A stretch of DNA of 25,581 bases from a virus (taxonomy: Duplodnaviria; Caudoviricetes), in IMG/VR virus record IMGVR_UViG_3300035548_000644, positions 1 through 25,581 of that record; one strand, given 5' to 3'. Positions within the stretch are counted from its first letter, which is position 1, and every line of letters starts with the position of its first letter. The notes beneath the pieces were generated by a model. It did no database searches and was not told where the DNA came from. It saw only the letters and a list, made by a program, of their open reading frames with translations. Of this stretch, positions 448 through 25,070 are shown in pieces. Both the position numbers and the translations under genes were made by a program.

Positions 448-3400
448 TTATCCCAGCATCGGCGACAAGCGGCCATCTTCGATTCCATCGTTGATACCAT
501 TGTAGATCACGTCAACAAGCTCCCTCTCAGTCAGAACAGAACCCTCTATGTTGATATTCGGACTTATATAATAGATATTACTTCCACCACCATTTTTTGA
601 ACCGCCACCAGAGAGCGTCAATTGTCCCGAGCGAATGCCTTGAGCAAAGGTGGCTGGTATGATCGTTTCTCCTTTATGGACCTTGGCATACATGTCTTTG
701 GGGATTTCTGGAGTACCAACATCAAACCACCCAGTAGCCCAATCCCAGACGTCTGATGCTGTATCTTTTACCCAATCCCATGCGTTACCAGCTGCATCGA
801 TCGCCCCACCACCAATATTACCAAGGAAACCAAATATCCTTTCAATCCATCCTGCTATAGTATCCAGAACATTGAACAAGCTTGACGAAAGGAAATCATA
901 TGTAGCTGATTCAACAGCCGATGTTGTTCCGGTATGCTCTTCGATCGCAGTCAGAGCATCGGCCATGGCTTGTTCAATATCGTATATTTCCGCATCGGCT
1001 GCAGCCTGATAGGCTTCTGCCTGATCATTGTATTGAGATCTCGTAATAAGACCTAATTCATACTGGCTCTGTAAGCTGCTAATTTGGCTGTCCAGCAGAT
1101 CATTGGCGCGGTCAATTTGTCGCTGATATTTATTGGTAATCTCGTCGGTCAGTTTTTCTATTGCTTCTGCCTGTTCTTCTGCAGCTTCTCCAACCAAACT
1201 CAACTTGTCGAGCTTGTCGATATCGACAAAGGGGATCAGATTGATAACATCGATTATTCCGTTAACCACATCAATAATGGTGTTTCCAACAGGGACGATA
1301 ACAGAGTTGTTCAGCCATTCATACACTGATCCTACCGCTTTTAAGATTGCACCGAGTACCTTTAGGGTAATCTGCAGTGGAATAAGAGCAATTTGAATCT
1401 TATTCAATATCGGCATAATAATATAACCGATTGTCTGTCCAAGCAGTTCTAAGAAATCAACAAGGGGTTGAAGTATTGTACTGATTGCCGGCTCTATCAC
1501 ACCGAACATTGCATCAACAATGGTCTGTGCAAAATTCAGCACCTTATTGACGTTTTCGATTTGTGTTACGGCATCGGCTATGGCATCAATAAAGGCAGTT
1601 ATTGGATTACCACCTGATAGAATCTGCCCTATATCCGTTCCTGCCGCCGCAAGCTGTGCGGTTCCGGATGCATAACTGCCAATATCCTGCAGCGAGAAAT
1701 TTCCGGAATCTATATTATGACGGGCCAAGGCTGTCTGGTATTCTGCCTCTTCTTTGTATTTGCGCATACGTTCCTGGCTTTCATTGATGATGCGCTTGCG
1801 TTCTTCTTCTGCTGCCTTATTGCGGTAATATTCCTCTAATGCGGCTTTCTCTTCGATGTACTTCTTTTGTATGGCAAAATTATCACCATAGATTTCCCTG
1901 GCTTTTTCGTTTAACTTGGTAAGACTTCTGGCCTGTTCTGCTGCTATGGAATTTGCTCCTTCTTTTACCTTCTCAACCCATTCCCCAATAAATTCAGGAT
2001 CAGCGTTCTTTGCATTAAAATCGTCCAAGGCTTGCTGAGCATAGGCAATAATTGCCTCTGTCTTTTCCTTATTGAGGCCCCAGACAGATCCATCTTCTTC
2101 TGTAATGGTTGCTGTTCTAAGCGATAGTGCCCATTCGAGCTGTTTCTTTAGGGCTTCTTCCTGTCCTTCATTTGTCTTTGCGTAGATTTTATCTCGTGCT
2201 GCAAGCAGCTCATTTCCTTCTTTGATCTTCTCGTTCAGTTCCCGCAGATTTATTTCCTTCGACAGGGTAGCAATACCGACCTGCAGTTCCTGGACACGTT
2301 TCTCGGCCTCAGCGGTTTTATCTGCCAGATCCTTCGCTTCTGATGCGTATTGAGATAAAGTACTTTCCTGCCCGGAATTCTCGATCCTAAAAACAGACGG
2401 GGCCATAGTATTGTATGGTGTTTCTGCAACAGATTGACTCTGTAGATTTTCCAGTTCTTCCTGGGCATCTTCGAGATCAGATTTCATGAGATCGAGCTGG
2501 AGCTTTAGCCCTGTTGTCTCTATGTCGGCAAGAGCTTCGTTATATCCATCGACAGATTCTTTCAGCGTATCATAGGCATCAGCAAGGTTATCGACAGATT
2601 CCTGATGACGTTTATTCTCAAGGGCGGCATCGGCGGCGGTATCCGCCGCCTTTTGCTGGGAAGCTGCATATGCCACAGCTGCCACAGTGGCTGCAGTTGC
2701 CGCAGCAATTCCGGCAAGGAGTAGCGGGTTTGTAACGGCAAGAGATGCGTTGAGTGCATTATGAGCGGCAACACTTGCCCAGGTTTTAATGGCAAGAAAG
2801 GCCTGCTTTACGGCCAGGGCCGACAGGTATCCTGTTATGGCTACCAGAGCACCTGCAAGGATTCCTCTTGCTAAGGGGCTATCGTTGATGGCATTAATCA
2901 GGTCAGTGAATACGGTTATCACGGCCTTTACCGCTGGCATAAGTGTATCGCCAAAACTTGCGGCAAGGCTTGCGACAGATTCTCTCAAACCGTCCTGCAT
3001 TGCACTCAGTGACTGGGCGCCAAGTTCCATACCGCCGTAATATCTGCCGCCTTCTGCAGTAAGATCGGCAAGGGCGTTCTGAAAATCCTTGAAACTGATC
3101 TTACCCGTACTTGCCATCTTGATAATTTCAGCGGTTGTCGTATCGTAAGCAGCAGCCAGGGCATCCAGTACCGGTACCCCCTGATCGAGATAGACATTGA
3201 GGACTTCCATATCGACAGCGCCCTTAGCCGCCCCCTTACTGTATGCGTTTATGAAGGAGGTGAACTTCTGGGCTTGCCCCTGGGAAAGGTCTCCAAACAT
3301 GGTAAGCTTGTCAGTGATATCATCGAGGGGAGTCTTGGCTGCAAGTAAGACTGCTGTTGCCTGTTTTGTTGTGGATAGGTCGAAAGGCGTCCACTTATTG

Positions 3401-9990: not shown

Positions 9991-10368
9991 CTATCGATCA
10001 AGGATGAGCCGAATAACCACATCATTGTCGTCGGTATTTCCTTCAAATAAACAGGTATAGTATTTATCTGCTTCAACTGTCTTTGCCGAATAAGTCATCG
10101 TTATCCAATATCCTTCCGAATTTAAAAGTTGCAGACTGTATGATCCCTCAGATGTTGCATAATAACCAGTCACAGAGCCCGAGGAAAGTTGGCCAATATG
10201 TTCGGCGTATCCGACACGAATACCATAGTGAAGGTCTGCGCCTGATCCCGTCATAAGGTTTTGATAGCGGATATATGCATCGTCATTTTCGTCGTCATCA
10301 CTTTTTCCAAGCAGATCACAAGAAAAAATCAGAAGCGATGTCAGCAAAAGCAGAACAATTTTTCTCAT
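9991..10368 (-). CDS. Lipoprotein (moron), function unknown
   Basis: Signal MRKIVLLLLTSLLIFS-C, acidic linker, beta-rich body; AGGAG RBS; own terminator. Confidence 0.8.
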   Translation of the reverse strand: MRKIVLLLLTSLLIFSCDLLGKSDDDENDDAYIRYQNLMTGSGADLHYGIRVGYAEHIGQLSSGSVTGYYATSEGSYSLQLLNSEGYWITMTYSAKTVEADKYYTCLFEGNTDDNDVVIRLILDR

Positions 10369-10571: not shown

Positions 10572-11258
10572 TTACCGGCGAATCAAACGGTTTTGATGAA
10601 CCCAGGCAACAACACGGCCAAAAAGGTGAAAACGTTCAGCTTGTTCAGGATCTTCCACAGCCAACGATAGGACTTGTTTCTTGGTACCGTCAGGCATCAT
10701 GCTGTAGGCAGTGATGGTCCTATCCATGGCATCGAATACCAGGAACTTTACATAGACGTCACCATCGACAGCAAAGACATAGATATCGTCATGCGTTTCC
10801 TGGCCCTCTCTGCTATCGAACAGAACAATGTCGCCGTCGACTATACCCACTCCTGCCATTGACGTTCCTGAAACGGTAAAGGCGTACGGATGCACGGCAG
10901 CAATGCCGGGAAACAGATCAAGGGGACGGACATACTTCTCAATGTTCACATCACTATTCCATTCCTGTCCGGGCCCTGCGCTTGCTCTCTGGCGAAGGAC
11001 AGGGATTCGATAGACCTCAAGAGACGTTTCCTCTTTTTCCTTATCGAAGAACATCTCGCCGTCACCTGTTAGTAACCAGTTTGAATTTACTTGGAAAGCT
11101 TTAATAAGAGACAAAATCAATTTCTTAGATGGTTCTTTTTCTCCCCTCTCAATATCACTTACTAAACTTGGAGAAGCTTGGATTGATCGTGCAAAATTTG
11201 CCTGTGACATAGCTACTGATTCCCTTATTTCTTTAAATCTTTCGCAAATATCCACCAT
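10572..11258 (-). CDS. CI-like repressor (XRE HTH + S24 peptidase)
   Basis: N-terminal HTH (MSQANFARSI...LVSDIERG); ASAG cleavage site; GTSM Ser and VYVK Lys; divergent from early operon. Confidence 0.93.
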   Translation of the reverse strand: MVDICERFKEIRESVAMSQANFARSIQASPSLVSDIERGEKEPSKKLILSLIKAFQVNSNWLLTGDGEMFFDKEKEETSLEVYRIPVLRQRASAGPGQEWNSDVNIEKYVRPLDLFPGIAAVHPYAFTVSGTSMAGVGIVDGDIVLFDSREGQETHDDIYVFAVDGDVYVKFLVFDAMDRTITAYSMMPDGTKKQVLSLAVEDPEQAERFHLFGRVVAWVHQNRLIRR

Positions 11259-11270
11259 ATTAAAAACCTA

Positions 11271-11405
11271 CACTAAACGTGATTATTATTTCTTATAAAA
11301 GATCACAAAAAGTGTTGACAATTCACGAATTGTGACCGATTATAAATGTACACGATACGTGTACACAAAAAACAATGTTATCATGTTTATTGTACACGGT
11401 ACGTG
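11271..11405. promoter_or_regulatory. Operator array: five CAC-N5-GTG palindromes overlapping the early promoter
   Basis: Sites start at 11271, 11304, 11324, 11351, 11395; TTGACA at 11315-11320 lies between two of them. Confidence 0.75.
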
Positions 11406-11411
11406 TATGTT

Positions 11412-11472
11412 GGTTGACAATGTAAACCAAACGAACCGAACCGTTTAGAAAAAACGGTTGACGATGTCAACC
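11412..11472. promoter_or_regulatory. Second operator pair, 17-bp palindromes
   Basis: GGTTGACAATGTAAACC (11412-11428) and GGTTGACGATGTCAACC (11456-11472). Confidence 0.65.
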
Positions 11473-11669
11473 ACCAACATAAAGAGATTATCGGCACAAA
11501 GGACCATAACCTCATACAGGTTACATGATTTTTTGCCGAGTATCGAGCTTTTTTCGGGAAACCGAATATTGGTCTTTGACAAGCAGCGTACGACACCGCC
11601 AGTCCGGGCACGGCGGCGGGCTTGTTCGTAACGCGGGGAAGAGAAGGAAACACAAGGGAGGAAATTACT

Positions 11670-11855
11670 ATGAAGGTAGAAATAGGTGTCAATGACGCTG
11701 ATATGATTGAAACCTTTTTACGAAGAGCAACCTTCGACGACTTCCGCCGAAGAAGTGAAAATAATCAGGAAGCCTACGACATGATCGATGCAAGCGAAAG
11801 GCTCAGGAGGGCGATCGTGACCAATATCGATCATCACTTCGACTCTCGGTCATAA
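11670..11855 (+). CDS. Small early hypothetical protein (61 aa)
   Basis: ATG 11670 after GGGAGG RBS, within track ORF 11622..11855. Confidence 0.75.
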   Translation: MKVEIGVNDADMIETFLRRATFDDFRRRSENNQEAYDMIDASERLRRAIVTNIDHHFDSRS

Positions 11856-11936
11856 CACTATGAAATCAATTGTTCGCCCGATTCATAACCTGGAGTGGAG
11901 AGGGCTACCGGGCGCCGGGGAAACGTGGCGCAATCT

Positions 11937-12074
11937 GGGACCGTGGCGAAATTGGTAGACGCGGGGCAGCGAGTTGGGGGCGCCGTGAAAGAAAAACAGT
12001 AGCGGGTAAGTGTGCCTCTCCCAGGGCTGAGTGTTGGGGACGGCCCTGTGCAGGTTCGAGTCCTGTCGGTCCTA
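11937..12074 (+). ncRNA. tRNA-like RNA with expanded anticodon region (no assignable anticodon)
   Basis: Acceptor GGGACCG/CGGTCCT-A; Leu-type D arm TGGCGAAATTGGTAGACGC; T arm GCAGG-TTCGAGT-CCTGT; 86-nt interior. Confidence 0.75.
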
Positions 12075-12147
12075 TTGGGGATCTGCCGCCGGCCAGTGAA
12101 CCGGCAATCAAATCTGCGTTGATAACGCGGGAAAGGAGGAATATCAA

Positions 12148-12441
12148 GTGAGAATAATCGAGATTAACGCATGCGCTAATCGCCCTTACTCGTCAATTGA
12201 TCATTTTGCATCTCATTGTCAGAAGATGGGCAGAATTATTGATGTCGATATCATTGGAATACCGGAGTGGTGTCCGCTTGAAAAACAGCACTTTGGCATA
12301 CACACAGGCAACAGAGAAAAACTAAAGAAACAACTGCTTGATTTAAACAAGGATCAAGAAGCAGTAAAAGCATTTGTCAACGACCTTGAAACGGTCATCA
12401 CAGAACTCAAGGATATCGTAAATGTTAAGCGTGCTGAATAA
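12148..12441 (+). CDS. Hypothetical early protein
   Basis: GTG start with AGGAGG RBS; Cys motif 'IPEWCPL' and coiled C-terminus. Confidence 0.7.
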   Translation: MRIIEINACANRPYSSIDHFASHCQKMGRIIDVDIIGIPEWCPLEKQHFGIHTGNREKLKKQLLDLNKDQEAVKAFVNDLETVITELKDIVNVKRAE

Positions 12442-12458: not shown

Positions 12459-12725
12459 ATGGCAGACGAAGCGTTTCAGAAAGAGGTATCAGCAAAGATC
12501 CTTTCGCTATATGAGAAGGAAGTTGACTCGTATTACATGGTAACGGCCATGAATAAAATCGCGGCCAATGAGAGGCTTATGGAGAACGCGAAGATTCTCC
12601 AGGCGGCCTTCATGCAAAGACTTACTGCATTTGACGGAATACTTAAGTCTTTTCATTTAACCGAAGATGCCGCCCGGATATCAAAAAGAATACGAGATAA
12701 GTATGACATCGATTTATTAGATTAG
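12459..12725 (+). CDS. Hypothetical early protein
   Basis: 88 aa, AAGGA RBS, operon position. Confidence 0.7.
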   Translation: MADEAFQKEVSAKILSLYEKEVDSYYMVTAMNKIAANERLMENAKILQAAFMQRLTAFDGILKSFHLTEDAARISKRIRDKYDIDLLD

Positions 12726-12745: not shown

Positions 12746-13057
12746 ATGACAATCAACAGTTTTGGAGGCCTTACAGGAAGGCCTTATCCAATCGATTACG
12801 AACGAAAGACGCGCGTCAGGGTAGAGCTTGCAAGAAGGAATATGAGCATCACTGACCTTGCAAATGCATTAAAACTTGACAGGGGGAATGTGTCAAAAGT
12901 TATAAGTGGTCGATCAATATCTCAAACGTATGAGACCCTCATAGCAACATTCTTACAACTTGATGTCAAGTATCTATTCCCTCCCCGGAGCCCTATGGAA
13001 CTTTTGGGCATGGCAGAGGTGGAGGGGAAAAGGGACGAGCGCGAGAGTGCGGCATGA
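12746..13057 (+). CDS. Ner/Cro-like HTH regulator
   Basis: 'VELARRNMSITDLANALKLDRGNVSKVISGR' HTH; directly upstream of and overlapping the transposase start (ATGA). Confidence 0.85.
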   Translation: MTINSFGGLTGRPYPIDYERKTRVRVELARRNMSITDLANALKLDRGNVSKVISGRSISQTYETLIATFLQLDVKYLFPPRSPMELLGMAEVEGKRDERESAA

Positions 13058-14973
13058 ACGGTACAGTACGAACAAAAGAGCTTGCCGAAGTCCTGCATAC
13101 CAGTCGCAAACAGGTACTTGAGCGAGCACGGAAAGAGGGATGGCCGTGTATACGGAAAAGCGGCGGAATTTGGTGGATTGAAAACCGCTTGCCAATGGAC
13201 ATACGGTTTACGCTGGCCAATAAACAAGATCAAAAATCAGAGAAAAATAGTGAACAAACCGCCCTTATACAGAGTGCAGGAGGGGTTTTTATTCATGCCA
13301 GTGATAAGGGACGAAACATTGCCACATGGAGAAGCAGCCTGATCTATGCATGGAAATCAAGCGGACTCAAGAAGCATGAATATATCGAAGCTTACAATGA
13401 TCAGGTAGCTGACCAGGCAATTTACAAAAAGTTGGGACCAGTAAGCCTTTCAACATTTTACCGTTGGCTCAAGGATTTCCACCAAGAGGGGGCCAGCGGT
13501 ATCACCCCACGGTATGGCATGAGTCGGGGAGGCGCCGGGGAAAGTTTGACGGACATCGAAAAGATATTATTGAAACGGTTCTGGCTGAAAAGCACCCAAC
13601 CAACGGCATCACATGCATATCGATTGATGAAGGAAAACGTTCCATATTCCCGTTGTAGCTATCAGACTGCATTACGCTACCTGAACAGCCTGCCAAAGGC
13701 GTATGCCGATTACCATAGGCTGGGAAAGAGCAGATTCGAAAATCTTCATCTCCCCTACCTTGAACAGGACATCTATCGCTATAGAAGTCTTGATATGGTG
13801 GTATCAGATCACCACTGCATGGATTGTGTTGTTGACTACCGAGGGAAGCTGGTCCGTCCATGGATGACAACGTTTCAGGATTACCGGAGCGGCAAGATCC
13901 TCGGATGGTGCCCATCGATAAAACCGTCGTCATTATCGATTATCGTAGCATATTACATGTGCGTTATGCAGTATGGCGTACCGAAGGTTTTACTCTTCGA
14001 CAACGGTAAGGATTATCGAAGCAAGCTTCTCAATGGGAGCATCGAAAAAGTAAAGGTTCTTACACCTGAAGGCACGACTGAGGAAGGGGAAGTCGAGCTG
14101 CAGGGCATATTCGGACTCATCGGATCATCGGTCCGTTTCACCAGGGTTTACAACGGAAAAAGCAAGGGACGACAGGAGCGATACTACCGCCTACTGGGAG
14201 AATATCTTGCCAAGGATATCGGCTCGTACATGGGTTCGGACACCAGGACGAGGCCGGAAGAAGCAGCTCTTATGTTCAGGTCTATCAATGGGATGGCAAA
14301 GCGGCATGATATCCCGACATGGGAAGATTTCGTTGAGGCTGCTGACAACATGGTCCGGGGAATCAACGACAGGTTTGAAAGTCACGGCAAGGGAATGAAT
14401 GGGAAAACCAGAAGTCAGGTATTCGCAGAGAACCTTCCACCTGATAGTGAGAGACGCTATGTAAACAAAGAGGAGCTGGTAAAGGCTCTTCGGGGTGGTC
14501 AGATTCGAAAATGTAAAAGAAATGGTGTCAAGGTAAACGGTATCAATTACTGGGATATCGAATTAACGGCATTCAGCGGTATGGATGTCGTTGTCTATAC
14601 ATCACTGATCAGCGATGAAGAGGTATCGGTATTCTCAACGAACGGACAATTTATCTGCCACGCAAAGGGAGATTTCTTCCGAGAAGGTTCCGATTTCAAG
14701 GAAACGATCGAACGGCTATCGAGAGCTAGGAAGGCTGGATTACAAAAGATGGCGGAGCTGGGCCGTGACGAGGTCGATATAGATCCAGCATACAAGACCA
14801 TGCTTGATGTCAATGCATCCATCTATGGCCAGAATCACACAGCATCGGTTGACGATCTATTGGAATTGCCGGTGGCAGCCGGTGCAGAAGACCGAAAAAG
14901 GGAACCATCGAAGCGAGAAAGCAATATCAAGGGCCTGCTCCAGGCGAGCAATGACGACTGGAGTGATGAATAA
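13054..14973 (+). CDS. MuA-like DDE transposase
   Basis: N-terminal Mu DNA-binding domain, HTH 'SLSTFYRW', catalytic SDHH / FDNGKDY / KGRQER, Mu C-terminal domain. Confidence 0.95.
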   Translation: MNGTVRTKELAEVLHTSRKQVLERARKEGWPCIRKSGGIWWIENRLPMDIRFTLANKQDQKSEKNSEQTALIQSAGGVFIHASDKGRNIATWRSSLIYAWKSSGLKKHEYIEAYNDQVADQAIYKKLGPVSLSTFYRWLKDFHQEGASGITPRYGMSRGGAGESLTDIEKILLKRFWLKSTQPTASHAYRLMKENVPYSRCSYQTALRYLNSLPKAYADYHRLGKSRFENLHLPYLEQDIYRYRSLDMVVSDHHCMDCVVDYRGKLVRPWMTTFQDYRSGKILGWCPSIKPSSLSIIVAYYMCVMQYGVPKVLLFDNGKDYRSKLLNGSIEKVKVLTPEGTTEEGEVELQGIFGLIGSSVRFTRVYNGKSKGRQERYYRLLGEYLAKDIGSYMGSDTRTRPEEAALMFRSINGMAKRHDIPTWEDFVEAADNMVRGINDRFESHGKGMNGKTRSQVFAENLPPDSERRYVNKEELVKALRGGQIRKCKRNGVKVNGINYWDIELTAFSGMDVVVYTSLISDEEVSVFSTNGQFICHAKGDFFREGSDFKETIERLSRARKAGLQKMAELGRDEVDIDPAYKTMLDVNASIYGQNHTASVDDLLELPVAAGAEDRKREPSKRESNIKGLLQASNDDWSDE

Positions 14974-14982
14974 GGAGGAAGT

Positions 14983-15894
14983 ATGAATATCGAGGTAAAA
15001 AATAAACTTGAATCTGTCATGGAAAAATACGGTATCAGCCAGAACGAGGCGGCACGTGATGTCGGGTATTCGAGCCCCGTGCTTTCGGCTTACCGAAAAG
15101 GAACATACGCTGGTGTTGTAGATAAACTTGAAGACGCCATCATGTGCTGGGTTTCTCGCGTCGAGCAAGCTCATGCACGAAAACGGGTCCCTATTACCGA
15201 AACCGATGACCTCAGACAGATTGTGAATGCCATTGCGATGGCACATAACGAACAAGATCTTGCGCTAATCATAGCAGATGCCGGGGCAGGAAAGAGCACG
15301 GCGGCAAAGTGGTATGCGGCAAGAAATCAGAGGACAACGGTCCTTATCAATGTTGTATCCGGGATGAATCGAAAAATGTTGGTCCAGGATATTGCCAAAC
15401 AACTCGGCATCGATACCGTCAAGGTACAGCAAAATACATTGATTCAAAATGTATCAACAGCACTCAAGGATAGAGATATGGTTGTTATCCTGGATGAGGC
15501 CGACTACCTCAAGGCAGACGCGCTTGAGTTCTCCCGGCGCCTTGTATACGACCTCGGAGAAAGCGGCCTGGTATTGATCGGTCTTCCACGCCTTAAAGGG
15601 ATGATCCAGGGATTGCGTAATGACCACCGCCAGCTTGAGAGCAGGATCGGGGTTTATCTTCATATGGGTGGCCTGACAAAACGAGATGCATCGACTTTGG
15701 CAAAAACCGTATGGCCTGATGTTGACAAAGATATTGTCGACGCCATCTATGATGTTTCGAAAACTGATATCCGGCAGTATTGCAAGATCATCGAACGGAC
15801 GCAGATGACCATGGCGCTTAACAAACGTAGCGATCCAGATCTTGATTGTGTCGCAAGTGCCTCACAGTTGATTATTCGGCGACAGTGGAGGTAG
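14983..15894 (+). CDS. MuB-like transposition AAA+ ATPase
   Basis: N-terminal HTH; Walker A ADAGAGKST; Walker B VVILDEAD; 'QLESRIG' arginine finger. Confidence 0.95.
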   Translation: MNIEVKNKLESVMEKYGISQNEAARDVGYSSPVLSAYRKGTYAGVVDKLEDAIMCWVSRVEQAHARKRVPITETDDLRQIVNAIAMAHNEQDLALIIADAGAGKSTAAKWYAARNQRTTVLINVVSGMNRKMLVQDIAKQLGIDTVKVQQNTLIQNVSTALKDRDMVVILDEADYLKADALEFSRRLVYDLGESGLVLIGLPRLKGMIQGLRNDHRQLESRIGVYLHMGGLTKRDASTLAKTVWPDVDKDIVDAIYDVSKTDIRQYCKIIERTQMTMALNKRSDPDLDCVASASQLIIRRQWR

Positions 15895-22103: not shown

Positions 22104-25009
22104 TGATGCAGAAAAAGACTACCCAAAAGGAAATGACTACTCAGATAATTACCAGCAATATGCTCGGATCTTTCCTTGGGTATATGCCAAATCCTGATGA
22201 TATCATTTCAGGTACGCTTGAATCATATAAAACCTATCGACAAATGAGAACTGACCCCAGAATAAAGTCGTTGATTAATAAGCTCAAAACATCTGCTTTA
22301 AATTTTCCTATGTCGATCTCTCAGGGGAGTAGTTCAGATAAGATTTATGCATTTATCAAGAATGTAAAACTTTTTGAGAACATGTATAAAAAGCAAAAAA
22401 GAATGTTGACAGCATTAGACTATGGATTTTCTATCTCGGAAATAGTATGGAAAGACCCAGTAAAAAATGATGGAAAATGGATCCCGGAAAATATCATCAC
22501 AAGAAAGCCTGATTATTTCTATTTTGATTATAACTGGAACCTGTTTTACAATAATCTGGGACAAAGAGATGAACTGAATCATGAACATAAATGGTTAATT
22601 TATCAGCACGATCCTGATGATGAAAATCCTTATGGAACATCAGTTTTACGATGTGTATATTGGCCATGGATGTTTAAAAAGGCTGGCTATGAGTTTTGGC
22701 TCCAGGCAACGGAAAAGTTCAGTGTCGAATCGTTAGTTGCATTATTTGATGCAGAAGGCGACGAAGAAACTCTGCAAAAACGTGCTGGTATTATTGCTCG
22801 TATGCTGATGGGGATAGAATCCGGATCTTCAGCAGCAGTATCAAATATTAAAGAACTGAAAGAAATTGGTATGTCCGGAAAGTTGGAAGCCTTTGAATCT
22901 TTGGTTAAGTCCTGTGATGAGCAAATAAGTTATGGTTTAACAGGGCAGTCTATCGCTACAAACAGCACGGACGGAGGATCTCTTGCTCTTGGAGAGGTTC
23001 AGGTCGATCTGCTTTACGAAGACAGCAAGGGAATTATCCTCGAGCTGCAGGCAGTATTACAACATGTCATTGACTGGACAGTAGAATTGAACTATGGACC
23101 GAATGAAAAAGCTCCACAAGTTGTATTTAATACAGACAGGAAAGCAACATTCGACCAAGTAATAAAGGCTATCGAAAAAGGGGTATCGGTATCAAAATCA
23201 GCATTCTATTCTGATTACGGTATTACTCCGCCTGCGAATGAAGACGATGTTCTCGTAACTTCTTCAGAAGAAGATAAGCTATCTATTGTTGAACAAAACA
23301 GGAATCATGAAAATGACGAAAAAACAACAGAGAATATTCAGCAAACAGTATTAAACGGTGCACAGATTTCATCCTTGATTGACCTATCTACACAGGTTTC
23401 TCAAGGAACCCTGCCATTAGAGACCGCCAGGGCCATGGCCAAAGCATCATTTCCTGCAATAGAAGAGTCAGATATCGATACTATATTTAATTCCCTAAAA
23501 GGATTTAAGCCGGAAACTATAAAGGCTTCTGATGATAGCAAAAAAAAAAGCCCTGAAAGAAAGCCATCGTTTCACATTATTCGATTAAGCGAAAGTGAAG
23601 TAGCCGAGGAAAAAGCGAAATTCAGAGAGCTCGAAAGCTTTGAGAATATAGCAAAGAAGCAGCTTTCAAAACATATTTCATCGGTACTAAAACGGTTTTT
23701 GAATACTATTCCAGATACTCCGGAAAGGGTTGATATTAATAAATCCTATATTATAAATGTGAATAGTGATGCTGTTAAAAATGTCGAAACATTGATTGCA
23801 GGGGCAATACTTCTCGGTATAGACCATATCAGCACTAATAAGATTTCTGCAGCCGATGAAAGTAATGAGATTCCAAAGATCCCGTATAAAGACGCTATGG
23901 ATTTTCTCAGTACAAAGGTCCCGATAACAAAGGCTGAATGGCAAAAATTAGAACCAAAACTGCGTTTTAGGGCATTTACAGCAGTTCGTCTGACTGAACT
24001 CGATTATATCAATCAGGCAAAGAATATGCTTACGAAATCTATCGAAGATGGGACCGGATATAAAGAGACATACAATCAGATAAAAAGAGTATTGGAAAAA
24101 GACGGTATGCAACTCAAACCTGGATACTGGGAAAATGTATATAGAACCAATATTGAAAGTGCCTATAACGCCGGAAAAGTCATGGCCATTGAAAAAACAA
24201 AGCCTGATGCTATACAGCTTTTTATCGTAGATGATGAGAGGACTTCTGATATTTGCAGGCATCTTCTTTCAGAAGTTGGAACTGGAATCGTATTACCACG
24301 TAATCATGTTTTCTGGAAAAAATATGGTTTTCCACCATATCACTATCAATGCAGGACTAATATAAGGGCAATCTATCAATCTCAGATAAAGCATGGTATT
24401 TCTGTTGACAATCCTCCCATTACGGCATTTAGCAATTTTAAACCGATGAATGGCTTTGGCGGGAATCCAGTTGAAAAAGAAAGCTGGTGGAAATTGACTG
24501 ATGCCATGGCCATCAGATCGGCCGATATGGGAATCTTTAATGAGATTGAAGACTATGCAAAGAAAAACGGCTTAAAGAATTTCAGCATGAACCTTGTAAA
24601 GGGATCTGATTATAGACGACTTGAGGGAACAAAATATTCAGTACAGAAAGCCTCTTTATCGAAACCATTACAAAAAGAAATATCTGTCGCAAAAATCTTG
24701 GAAGAAAATAATCATAGCGTCTATTTCACTCCAGAAAATCAGTCAGTAAAGAACTATGACGCAATTGTCGATGGCCACACTGCTGAGTTCAAGATCATCA
24801 CCAGTAAAAACATTGAAAAAATAGTTGACAGGATACGAGATGCAAATAAGCAAACCGCTCAGATTGCAGTTATTCAAATACCAGCAGATTCGTATCCAAA
24901 GGATGATGCTATAGAAATTATCAAGCATACGATCAATGAAAAAACCATTGATTCTATACAGTATGTTTATTTGATTTTTAATGGTGGAGTCGAAGTGGTA
25001 AAAAAATAG
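22103..25009 (+). CDS. Portal (Mu gp29/DUF935) - MuF minor head protein - PD-(D/E)xK nuclease (CdiA-CT-like) fusion
   Basis: Portal motifs (ALDYGFS.SEIVW, NPYGTSVL, GSLALGEV); MuF motifs (RAFT, VYRTNI.SAYNAG, DDERTS.IC, PPYHYQCRT); C-terminal 'YDAIVDG...EFK...ANKQ'; likely start ATG 22103 overlapping TerL stop. Confidence 0.88.
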   Translation: MMQKKTTQKEMTTQIITSNMLGSFLGYMPNPDDIISGTLESYKTYRQMRTDPRIKSLINKLKTSALNFPMSISQGSSSDKIYAFIKNVKLFENMYKKQKRMLTALDYGFSISEIVWKDPVKNDGKWIPENIITRKPDYFYFDYNWNLFYNNLGQRDELNHEHKWLIYQHDPDDENPYGTSVLRCVYWPWMFKKAGYEFWLQATEKFSVESLVALFDAEGDEETLQKRAGIIARMLMGIESGSSAAVSNIKELKEIGMSGKLEAFESLVKSCDEQISYGLTGQSIATNSTDGGSLALGEVQVDLLYEDSKGIILELQAVLQHVIDWTVELNYGPNEKAPQVVFNTDRKATFDQVIKAIEKGVSVSKSAFYSDYGITPPANEDDVLVTSSEEDKLSIVEQNRNHENDEKTTENIQQTVLNGAQISSLIDLSTQVSQGTLPLETARAMAKASFPAIEESDIDTIFNSLKGFKPETIKASDDSKKKSPERKPSFHIIRLSESEVAEEKAKFRELESFENIAKKQLSKHISSVLKRFLNTIPDTPERVDINKSYIINVNSDAVKNVETLIAGAILLGIDHISTNKISAADESNEIPKIPYKDAMDFLSTKVPITKAEWQKLEPKLRFRAFTAVRLTELDYINQAKNMLTKSIEDGTGYKETYNQIKRVLEKDGMQLKPGYWENVYRTNIESAYNAGKVMAIEKTKPDAIQLFIVDDERTSDICRHLLSEVGTGIVLPRNHVFWKKYGFPPYHYQCRTNIRAIYQSQIKHGISVDNPPITAFSNFKPMNGFGGNPVEKESWWKLTDAMAIRSADMGIFNEIEDYAKKNGLKNFSMNLVKGSDYRRLEGTKYSVQKASLSKPLQKEISVAKILEENNHSVYFTPENQSVKNYDAIVDGHTAEFKIITSKNIEKIVDRIRDANKQTAQIAVIQIPADSYPKDDAIEIIKHTINEKTIDSIQYVYLIFNGGVEVVKK

Positions 25010-25070
25010 ACTTTCTTTATTGTGGTGGTCGATATGCATCGGCCATGCTCCACAACGCTGAAAGTCTTTA
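25000..25070 (-). ncRNA. Candidate ~70-nt hairpin small RNA convergent to the nuclease gene
   Basis: Three nested stems (25008-25067), U7 tract at 25006-25000, upstream minus-strand promoter. Confidence 0.5.

Follow-up and report, generated by a model that had tools for sequence, protein, structure and literature searches.

The window, a 25,581-nt stretch of DNA, contains at positions 11937 to 12074 of the plus strand a real, non-decoding, tRNA-Leu-shaped element. For this frame, a role as processing signal and scaffold in the early transcript of a Mu-like prophage is considered likely, with a probability of about one in two. Among the roles offered in an earlier note on this DNA, that of an RNase P or 3'-processing signal appears from the sequences to be the best supported, since the relatives at the same site conserve only the acceptor, the GG of the D loop, the T arm and A73, down to forms of 40 nt. 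Position, strand, stripped-down conservation in related phages and a free interior are established for the frame, while its transcription, cleavage and purpose are predicted.

The element and its genomic surroundings

The window is a provirus record of a Mu-like phage, 45% complete. The relatives of its MuB protein are 58-69% identical and stem from records titled Treponema or Spirochaetia, many of them Treponema, labels which describe these relatives. On the plus strand, the order is DUF7706 ORF, element, two ORFs without a family, Ner, Mu transposase, MuB, Gam and GemA, with a portal-MuF protein ending in a CdiA_C-like domain farther on. The element itself sits about 680 nt from the repressor start, behind an ORF. 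The following features were identified:

10572..11258, minus: divergent repressor (HTH plus S24 peptidase), from Pfam
11315..11343, plus: candidate early promoter TTGACA-17-GATTAT, a 10/12 consensus match; the site count (4, compared with 3.2 in shuffles) is not above chance
11535..11586, plus: start of a structured early leader, homologous to that of the relatives (relatives-only profile, E 0.0026; alignment)
11670..11855, plus: first early ORF, DUF7706, upstream of the element (Pfam, E 1.6e-10)
11912..11931, plus: hairpin immediately 5' of the element that contains CCGGGG at -22 (sequence, relatives)
11937..12074, plus: tRNA-Leu-shaped element of 138 nt, without anticodon loop and without encoded CCA (sequence)
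11937..11943, plus: 5' strand of the acceptor stem, pairing with 12067-12073 (7/7 pairs, G1-U72 a wobble)
11944..11962, plus: U8, G9 and Leu-type D arm (sequence)
11963..12018, plus: predicted stem at the anticodon position, 11963-68/12013-18, GGGGCA/TGCCTC (constrained folding)
11964..12048, plus: diverged internal repeat, 11964-11987 and 12024-12048 (19/25 columns identical)
12022..12048, plus: variable-arm-like hairpin of 8 bp (12022-29/12041-48) with an 11-nt loop (folding)
12050..12066, plus: T arm, 5/5 pairs, canonical loop TTCGAGT
12074, plus: discriminator A, A73 (sequence)
12088..12106, plus: GCCGG..ACCGGCA hairpin 3' of the element, the only copy of the motif in the window
12116..12139, plus: small hairpin, then the Shine-Dalgarno (SD) sequence of the next ORF (sequence); the hairpin-then-SD layout also occurs in relatives
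12148..12441, plus: ORF of 97 aa directly downstream of the element, without Pfam or PHROG match, atlas hits below 0.9
12746..15894, plus: Ner-like regulator, Mu transposase and MuB-like ATPase, the operon after the element (Pfam)

Between the repressor and the early leader, operator-like repeats and palindromes are present at 11340-11476, among them repeats of 17 and 18 nt that lie 44 nt apart. The motif TAACGCGGG is repeated at 11624-11641 and 12118-12135, ahead of the SD sequence of each of the two early accessory ORFs. A lipoprotein-like ORF with a weak DUF4397 match (9991-10368, minus strand), located directly downstream of the repressor, is possibly a superinfection factor expressed in the lysogen. 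For the ORFs downstream of the element, no function was found with Pfam, PHROG or the atlas; an early ORF of 88 aa (12459-12725) gave ferritin/rubrerythrin-like feature hits at 0.91, which are a lead only, as these families are on less than half of the cluster members.

The tRNA-like frame proposed in the earlier note was found to hold in its coordinates, its acceptor, Leu-type D arm and T arm, its A73 and its lack of CCA. With a strict descriptor of this frame and both strands counted, the window gave 1 match and 1,500 dinucleotide shuffles gave 0. None of the 12 acceptor and T pairs is broken, the bases of the tertiary core are intact as well, and the acceptor pairs reach a probability of 0.89-1.0 in unconstrained folding. 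In the tRNA numbering that we take to apply to 11937-12074, the 3-bp D stem GCG/CGC (11946-48/11960-62) closes an 11-nt loop with G18G19 at 11954-55, and A15 (11951) lies opposite U48 (12049), a pair that is a habit of tRNA-Leu. The D-arm pattern is shared with host-type tRNA-Leu genes and with RNA1 of phage T5. An inner alternative acceptor (12023-29/12067-73; 7 pairs, 2 of them wobbles) was rejected; it competes with the variable-arm-like hairpin, and the outer acceptor has the probability given above.

In the interior, the 8-bp variable-arm-like stem described earlier is present, with a pair probability of about 0.7 when the frame is held and of 0.47 without constraints. The absence of a 7-nt anticodon loop was likewise confirmed, as no such loop closed by at least three pairs occurs in the interior of the element. 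The earlier wording that the anticodon arm had been replaced was correct for the loop and not for the arm: a stem is predicted at the anticodon position, so that a 44-nt insert takes the place of the loop. This GGGGCA/TGCCTC stem starts straight after the D stem and encloses the purine-rich insert at 11969-12012. With acceptor, T and D arms held, it was calculated at -45.3 kcal/mol with a pair probability of about 0.45, compared with -43.2 kcal/mol and about 0.27 for the GGGGGCGC/GTGCCTCT stem that the note had suggested; without constraints, the latter is the likelier of the two (0.38 versus 0.00). The note's stem is favoured in free folding and less favoured within the frame, and in these models either central stem may form. 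The 5' strand of the central stem, GGGGCAGC, is identical to that of the relative in locus L128. The folding energy of the whole 138-mer is no better than that of shuffles (z +0.34), which leaves the interior fold without energy support. The score of the internal repeat was matched or exceeded in 9 of 1,000 shuffles.

ARAGORN, which had been recommended as a check, and Rfam did not recognise the element: ARAGORN reported 0 genes in the window, and the only Rfam hit was a tRNA match to the 3' part of the element below threshold (18.2 bits, gathering score 29). The exclusion of a group I intron stands, given the insert of 44 nt and the absence of an Rfam match, and so does that of a tmRNA, given G3-C70 in place of G3-U70, the absence of a tag reading frame and the negative ARAGORN result. 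A decoding role is unlikely, and the description as a tRNA mimic that does not decode and that lies in the early operon and not at an attachment site is supported.

Relatives at the same site

Related loci, designated by L numbers, were fetched from three collections with a MuB alignment; with the transposase as single query, no loci were found. In 62 close loci, a descriptor requiring the D arm gave no credible element, only one chance-like frame of 267 nt. The D arm was dropped, and the interval from repressor to Ner was scanned in the 40 loci reaching upstream of the transposase. In this interval, a perfect T arm was identified on the early strand in 20 of the 40 loci and on the other strand in none, and 17 of these 20 have a nearby acceptor of 6-7 bp; L149, L151 and L156, with poorer acceptors, were excluded from later counts. 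The other 20 loci, 4 of them incomplete upstream, contain no such T arm, which implies that the element can be dispensed with or replaced. When 218 genomes of one family were searched by pattern, 6 matched and 5 new elements were added, giving a set of 22 distinct relatives (17 + 5), or 23 sequences with the window. Among six more distant MuB loci, one T arm was found.

In most relatives, the distance to the repressor start is 350-470 nt; the element sits there where a conserved structured leader ends, and a small hairpin, an SD sequence and the first ORF come after it. Predicted folded structure was identified at most 24 nt 3' of the discriminator in 21 of the 22 relatives (two weak), usually just before the SD sequence of the first ORF. 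The acceptor and T stems are paired in 97.7% of 264 cells of the alignment, compared with 25-63% for slid controls, and 5 of the 12 acceptor/T pairs show two-sided changes; the 5' end is misaligned in three rows of this alignment, the shuffle test is inflated by kinship, and since the relatives are kin, the counts are not independent. RNase P has preferences at positions -1, +1 and 73; position +1 is G in 23/23 sequences, -1 is T or C in 20/23, and the discriminator is A in 22/23. A GG is located at most 14 nt past the acceptor in all 22 relatives. About 20 of them have no D stem, short D-like stems being seen only in L187 and L446. The interior measures 8-82 nt in the relatives and 106 nt in the window. 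In the minimal elements of 40 nt (L127:619-658 and L181:2758-2797), an acceptor, an 8-nt linker with GG, a T arm and an A directly precede the SD sequence.

In L441, two elements were identified, each ahead of its own ORF. Two T-arm elements per early region were observed in three loci (L149:1586 and 2684; L156:2915 and 4679; L441:1446 and 2183), which suggests that a cassette has been repeated ahead of accessory genes. A conserved structured leader, TTTGACAGCGGG...TGACCCTGAGCGC...GCGCCCAAAA, with two-sided pair changes and no Rfam match, was noted about 250 nt upstream of each element in L128, L129, L130, L132-L137, L147, L184, L187, L209 and L441-L446; the window keeps only the first part of this leader (11535-11650). 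Several element-free relatives have short leaders. Three other element-free loci (L122:1420-1640, L123:3300-3560 and L125:4260-4470) share another long GC-rich leader after the same TTTGACA motif, also without an Rfam match. On 9 element-bearing and 4 other related loci, Rfam gave nothing at threshold.

The kinship of the RNA in the window with these relatives has been shown in part. The element and the relatives occupy the same interval on the same strand, and the case for its orthology is made by position, by three short flanking motifs and by the acceptor. CCGGGG occurs at most 45 nt upstream in 12 of the 22 relatives, 11 times at -19 to -23, and has 6 copies on the plus strand of the window; the GCCGG..ACCGGCA motif is found at most 220 nt downstream in 4 of the 22, these flanking motifs having been chosen by eye before counting. 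The RNA body of the window is no closer to the relatives than an ordinary tRNA: the relatives-only profile gave E 3.6 for it, and a covariance model that included the window scored it at 33 bits, compared with 45.9 and 44.6 bits for two phage tRNA-Leu genes. The 5' strand of the acceptor is the same as in the phage tRNA-Leu(TAA) genes of L452 and L460, which makes a tRNA-Leu origin of the element likely. It may have kept an ancestral D arm, or a tRNA-Leu-type module may have been recruited anew into the slot.

Elsewhere, the earlier proposal to search for homologues of the insert was not rewarded, as no close homologue of the interior was found. A blastn search of the element against 50,697 phage records gave only fragments of the D arm or T arm and 0 records covering 80%, and an exact 16-nt pattern matched 8 viral loci, none of them tRNA-like. 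Among 401 genomes of the spirochaete phylum, 39 contained a pattern of D arm, long gap and T loop, the matches listed being mostly tandem tRNAs; four of these loci taken in full included 2 long-insert frames with unrelated interiors.

Proposed role and alternative explanations

In the proposed mechanism, the early transcript would fold the frame, be cut by host RNase P at 11937 and be trimmed at or near 12074 by a 3' processing nuclease. These cuts would split the early transcript and free a stable small RNA, and the downstream message would be uncoupled from the leader and the DUF7706 cistron, its new 5' end presumably shielded by the hairpins past the discriminator. The purpose would be a post-transcriptional control of the ORFs of 97 and 88 aa, Ner, MuA and MuB. 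The interior would be an exchangeable cargo, an anti-SD-like loop in many relatives and a purine-rich, partly duplicated insert in the window, and the released RNA may act via this cargo. The relatives' interior of 8-82 nt, mostly without a D stem, favours processing and scaffold functions over leucylation or a nuclease decoy. Against the processing role, the full Leu-type D arm exceeds the needs of processing, and in the window an ORF precedes the element, whose distance to the repressor start is about 680 nt, compared with 350-470 nt in most relatives.

An extension of the processing role is that the freed RNA would repress early or lytic translation by base pairing, like P1 C4 and P4 CI, its frame displaying an SD-pairing loop. 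CTCC is present in 15 of the 23 interiors, compared with 5.6 in base shuffles (maximum 12 in 2,000), and CCTCC in 10 of the 23, compared with 1.8 (maximum 7 in 2,000), counts which are inflated by the relatedness of the sequences. In the relatives, the CTCC motif is mostly located in a U/C-rich loop on the central stem, perfect matches of 8-9 bp to the own downstream SD region were identified for L138, L441a and L441b, and the element lies in the early leader upstream of the first ORF. However, 18 elements gave no sign of a preference for own over other SD sequences (p 0.27 by permutation, with two doubtful SD choices), 8 of the 23 interiors contain no CTCC, the 40-nt forms included, and in the long-insert D-arm class CCTCC was found in 0 of 74 frames. 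The only such motif of the window, CCTCTCCC at 12015-22, is predicted to be mostly paired and ranks 7/18 against its own SD sequence, so that the anti-SD idea fits the family more than the copy in the window. With both strands of the window considered, perfect complementarity to the interior extends to 12 nt at most, within a tail-region ORF, a length estimated to be at chance level, and the C4 models of Rfam matched neither the element nor the related loci. Such an RNA repressor is regarded as doubtful. A broader proposal, put forward only tentatively, is that of a modular tRNA-frame regulator in Treponema-type Mu-like phages, in which RNase P would release a swappable guide at the anticodon position: in most members a mimic of the anti-SD tail, broadly damping translation initiation of lytic genes, superinfecting phages or the host, and in the window another cargo on a still leucylatable frame. 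Should such anti-SD loops be functional, they would give phages a new way to control translation.

The RNA might instead act in trans as a tRNA mimic which, charged by leucyl-tRNA synthetase (LeuRS) or uncharged, titrates a tRNA-binding host or defence protein via its elbow and acceptor end. A73, U8-A14, G18-U55 and G19-C56 are described as critical for LeuRS, together with how the variable arm is oriented, and the anticodon arm as dispensable, in the available text of one study (PMC2377443); the element contains all of these bases. An encoded CCA is also missing from host-type tRNA-Leu genes (5/5), and the design is widespread, with about 860 stretches estimated and a complete frame in 74 of 110 distinct sampled matches. 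Leucylation of the copy in the window is therefore possible as judged from its bases, but the spacing of the variable arm on the 5' side is unlike tRNA-Leu, and since about 20 of the 22 relatives have no D stem, recognition by LeuRS is unlikely as a shared role. The idea of a decoy for anticodon nucleases, raised in the earlier note, is weakened by the absence of an anticodon-like loop, and a trans-acting mimic of either kind is judged unlikely. Slightly less credence is given to a decayed or interrupted tRNA-Leu which, after a recent insertion or internal duplication, would be functionless or restored by a splicing step. The acceptor and D arm match phage tRNA-Leu(TAA) genes, the interior contains the diverged repeat without close homologues and folds no better than shuffles, and the removal of one block can leave U33 plus AAG. 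Single-block excision, however, yields a canonical loop in 0 of 8 cases, with no pyrimidine at 32 and no purine at 37, and the acceptor/T pairs (12/12) and the tertiary-core bases are intact while the two copies of the repeat differ at 6 of 25 columns. Moreover, the relatives hold anticodon-less frames in the same slot, and this design is retained in T5 as a stable RNA. An intron-containing tRNA was rejected, as none of the 8 excisions gives Y32-U33...R37 and the 44-nt insert has no group I core.

A partnership with a tRNase-like domain of the phage, also suggested before, would make the RNA an antitoxin or substrate decoy of the CdiA_C-like nuclease domain that ends the portal-MuF protein. 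CdiA_C is associated with tRNase activity; Pfam recognises the domain in the window (PF18451, E 4.3e-6), and the 110 nt past it show no evident immunity ORF. This reading fails on co-occurrence, because the domain was identified in 6 of the 14 phage records that carry the element and in 5 of the 7 that do not, all of these records being 7-58% complete. In addition, element and domain lie 10 kb apart, one in the early and one in the late region, and each MuF gene has its own short hairpin region behind it, so that the partnership is considered highly improbable. In the window (25009-25070) and in 19 related loci with downstream sequence (within L478-L497), the MuF stop is followed by variable hairpins, often with a shared A/T-rich motif ending in GTCAAG/GCAAG; this region is possibly an RNA antitoxin or a terminator.

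Comparison with known systems

The long-insert design is common in uncultured phages. The estimate of 860 stretches of viral contigs was obtained with a pattern of D arm, 70-100 nt and T loop; 120 loci were sampled, and among the 74 complete frames from their 110 distinct matches, 59 contain A73 and 3 an encoded CCA. The sampled frames fall into 59 unrelated interior clusters, none with a likeness to the interior of the window beyond 12 nt, and a tRNA recognised by ARAGORN lies nearby in 13 of 48 longer sampled loci. When viral contigs were searched with a pattern of T arm plus acceptor, most of the matches were tmRNA ends and ordinary tRNAs. In L379, L451, L453, L461 and L466, other tRNA-like phage genes were noted that have a class I D arm but lack a regular anticodon arm, and a phage tRNA array in L452 and L457 (about 2420-2654, minus strand) contains three tRNA-Leu genes of 74-76 nt without a long variable arm. 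The literature was covered by titles and the first lines of abstracts, a scope outside which the original work on T5, C4 and CI and most subscription papers fall; within it, no entry dealt with this class or with tRNA-like elements of Mu-like prophages, and the candidate list of PMC10690425 could include the family.

The element resembles RNA1 of phage T5 (AY543070.1, 30501-30644), which has an acceptor, a Leu-type D arm, a long insert at the anticodon position, a hairpin before the T arm and no anticodon loop in 144 nt, compared with 138 nt in the window. This likeness comes from a side-by-side reading of the sequences and describes an architectural class, not a curated family; the T5 stretch was absent among the matches listed in the blastn search of the element against phage records. 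T5 RNA1 belongs to a tRNA gene cluster of a lytic phage, whereas the phage of the window is temperate and Mu-like and has its element alone in the early operon. T5 RNA1 is annotated as 'tRNA-like stable RNA with unknown functions'; RNAs of the T5 type lack an explanation, and their design is missed by ARAGORN and Rfam.

With class II tRNA-Leu (Rfam RF00005), the element shares the D arm, A73, the tertiary-core bases and a long variable hairpin; in contrast to it, the 44-nt insert replaces the 7-nt anticodon loop, and the element falls below the Rfam threshold and is missed by ARAGORN. The acceptor, stemless D loop and T arm of the stripped-down relatives are like the tRNA-like domain of tmRNA, the sequence of the T arm being as at tmRNA 3' ends, but the tag reading frame is missing, the element is too short and the window has G3-C70 and not G3-U70. 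The YrlA Y RNAs are also non-decoding and mimic D arm, T arm and acceptor, and one member is cut by RNase P and given CCA, as described in the available text (PMC4201824). According to the same text, their acceptor is an internal stem-loop between T and D arms and their genes lie beside that of Ro60 (PMC4201824), whereas the element has the normal order of 5'-acceptor, D arm, T arm and acceptor and no Rfam match. As for a Ro60 gene within 4 kb, no such family was found among 17 scanned ORFs of the window, which included the flanking early genes.

The C4 and CI RNAs exert antisense control of neighbouring genes. Like the element, C4 of P1/P7 and CI of P4 are small phage RNAs in an early transcript; they are RNase P substrates in the available parts of the sources (PMC5499578, PMC4919922), and excision by RNase P is predicted for the element. 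Plant mitochondrial t-elements, which set mRNA 5' and 3' ends, are tRNA-like structures in a protein-coding precursor with ends made by RNase P and RNase Z, and minimal forms of them suffice, as far as the available text describes them (PMC1920247). The frame in the window, with its conserved T arm, likewise lies inside a predicted mRNA precursor. The t-elements differ in being organellar and in having mapped cleavage, which is predicted for the window, and the available text reports no exchangeable cargo loop (PMC1920247). The novelty lies in the series of stripped-down forms at a single locus and in their anti-SD-like loops. As a natural deletion series at one place, from the 138-nt Leu-type form to the 40-nt forms of acceptor plus T arm, it reveals which parts are kept and which are free, and it makes the processing hypothesis directly testable.
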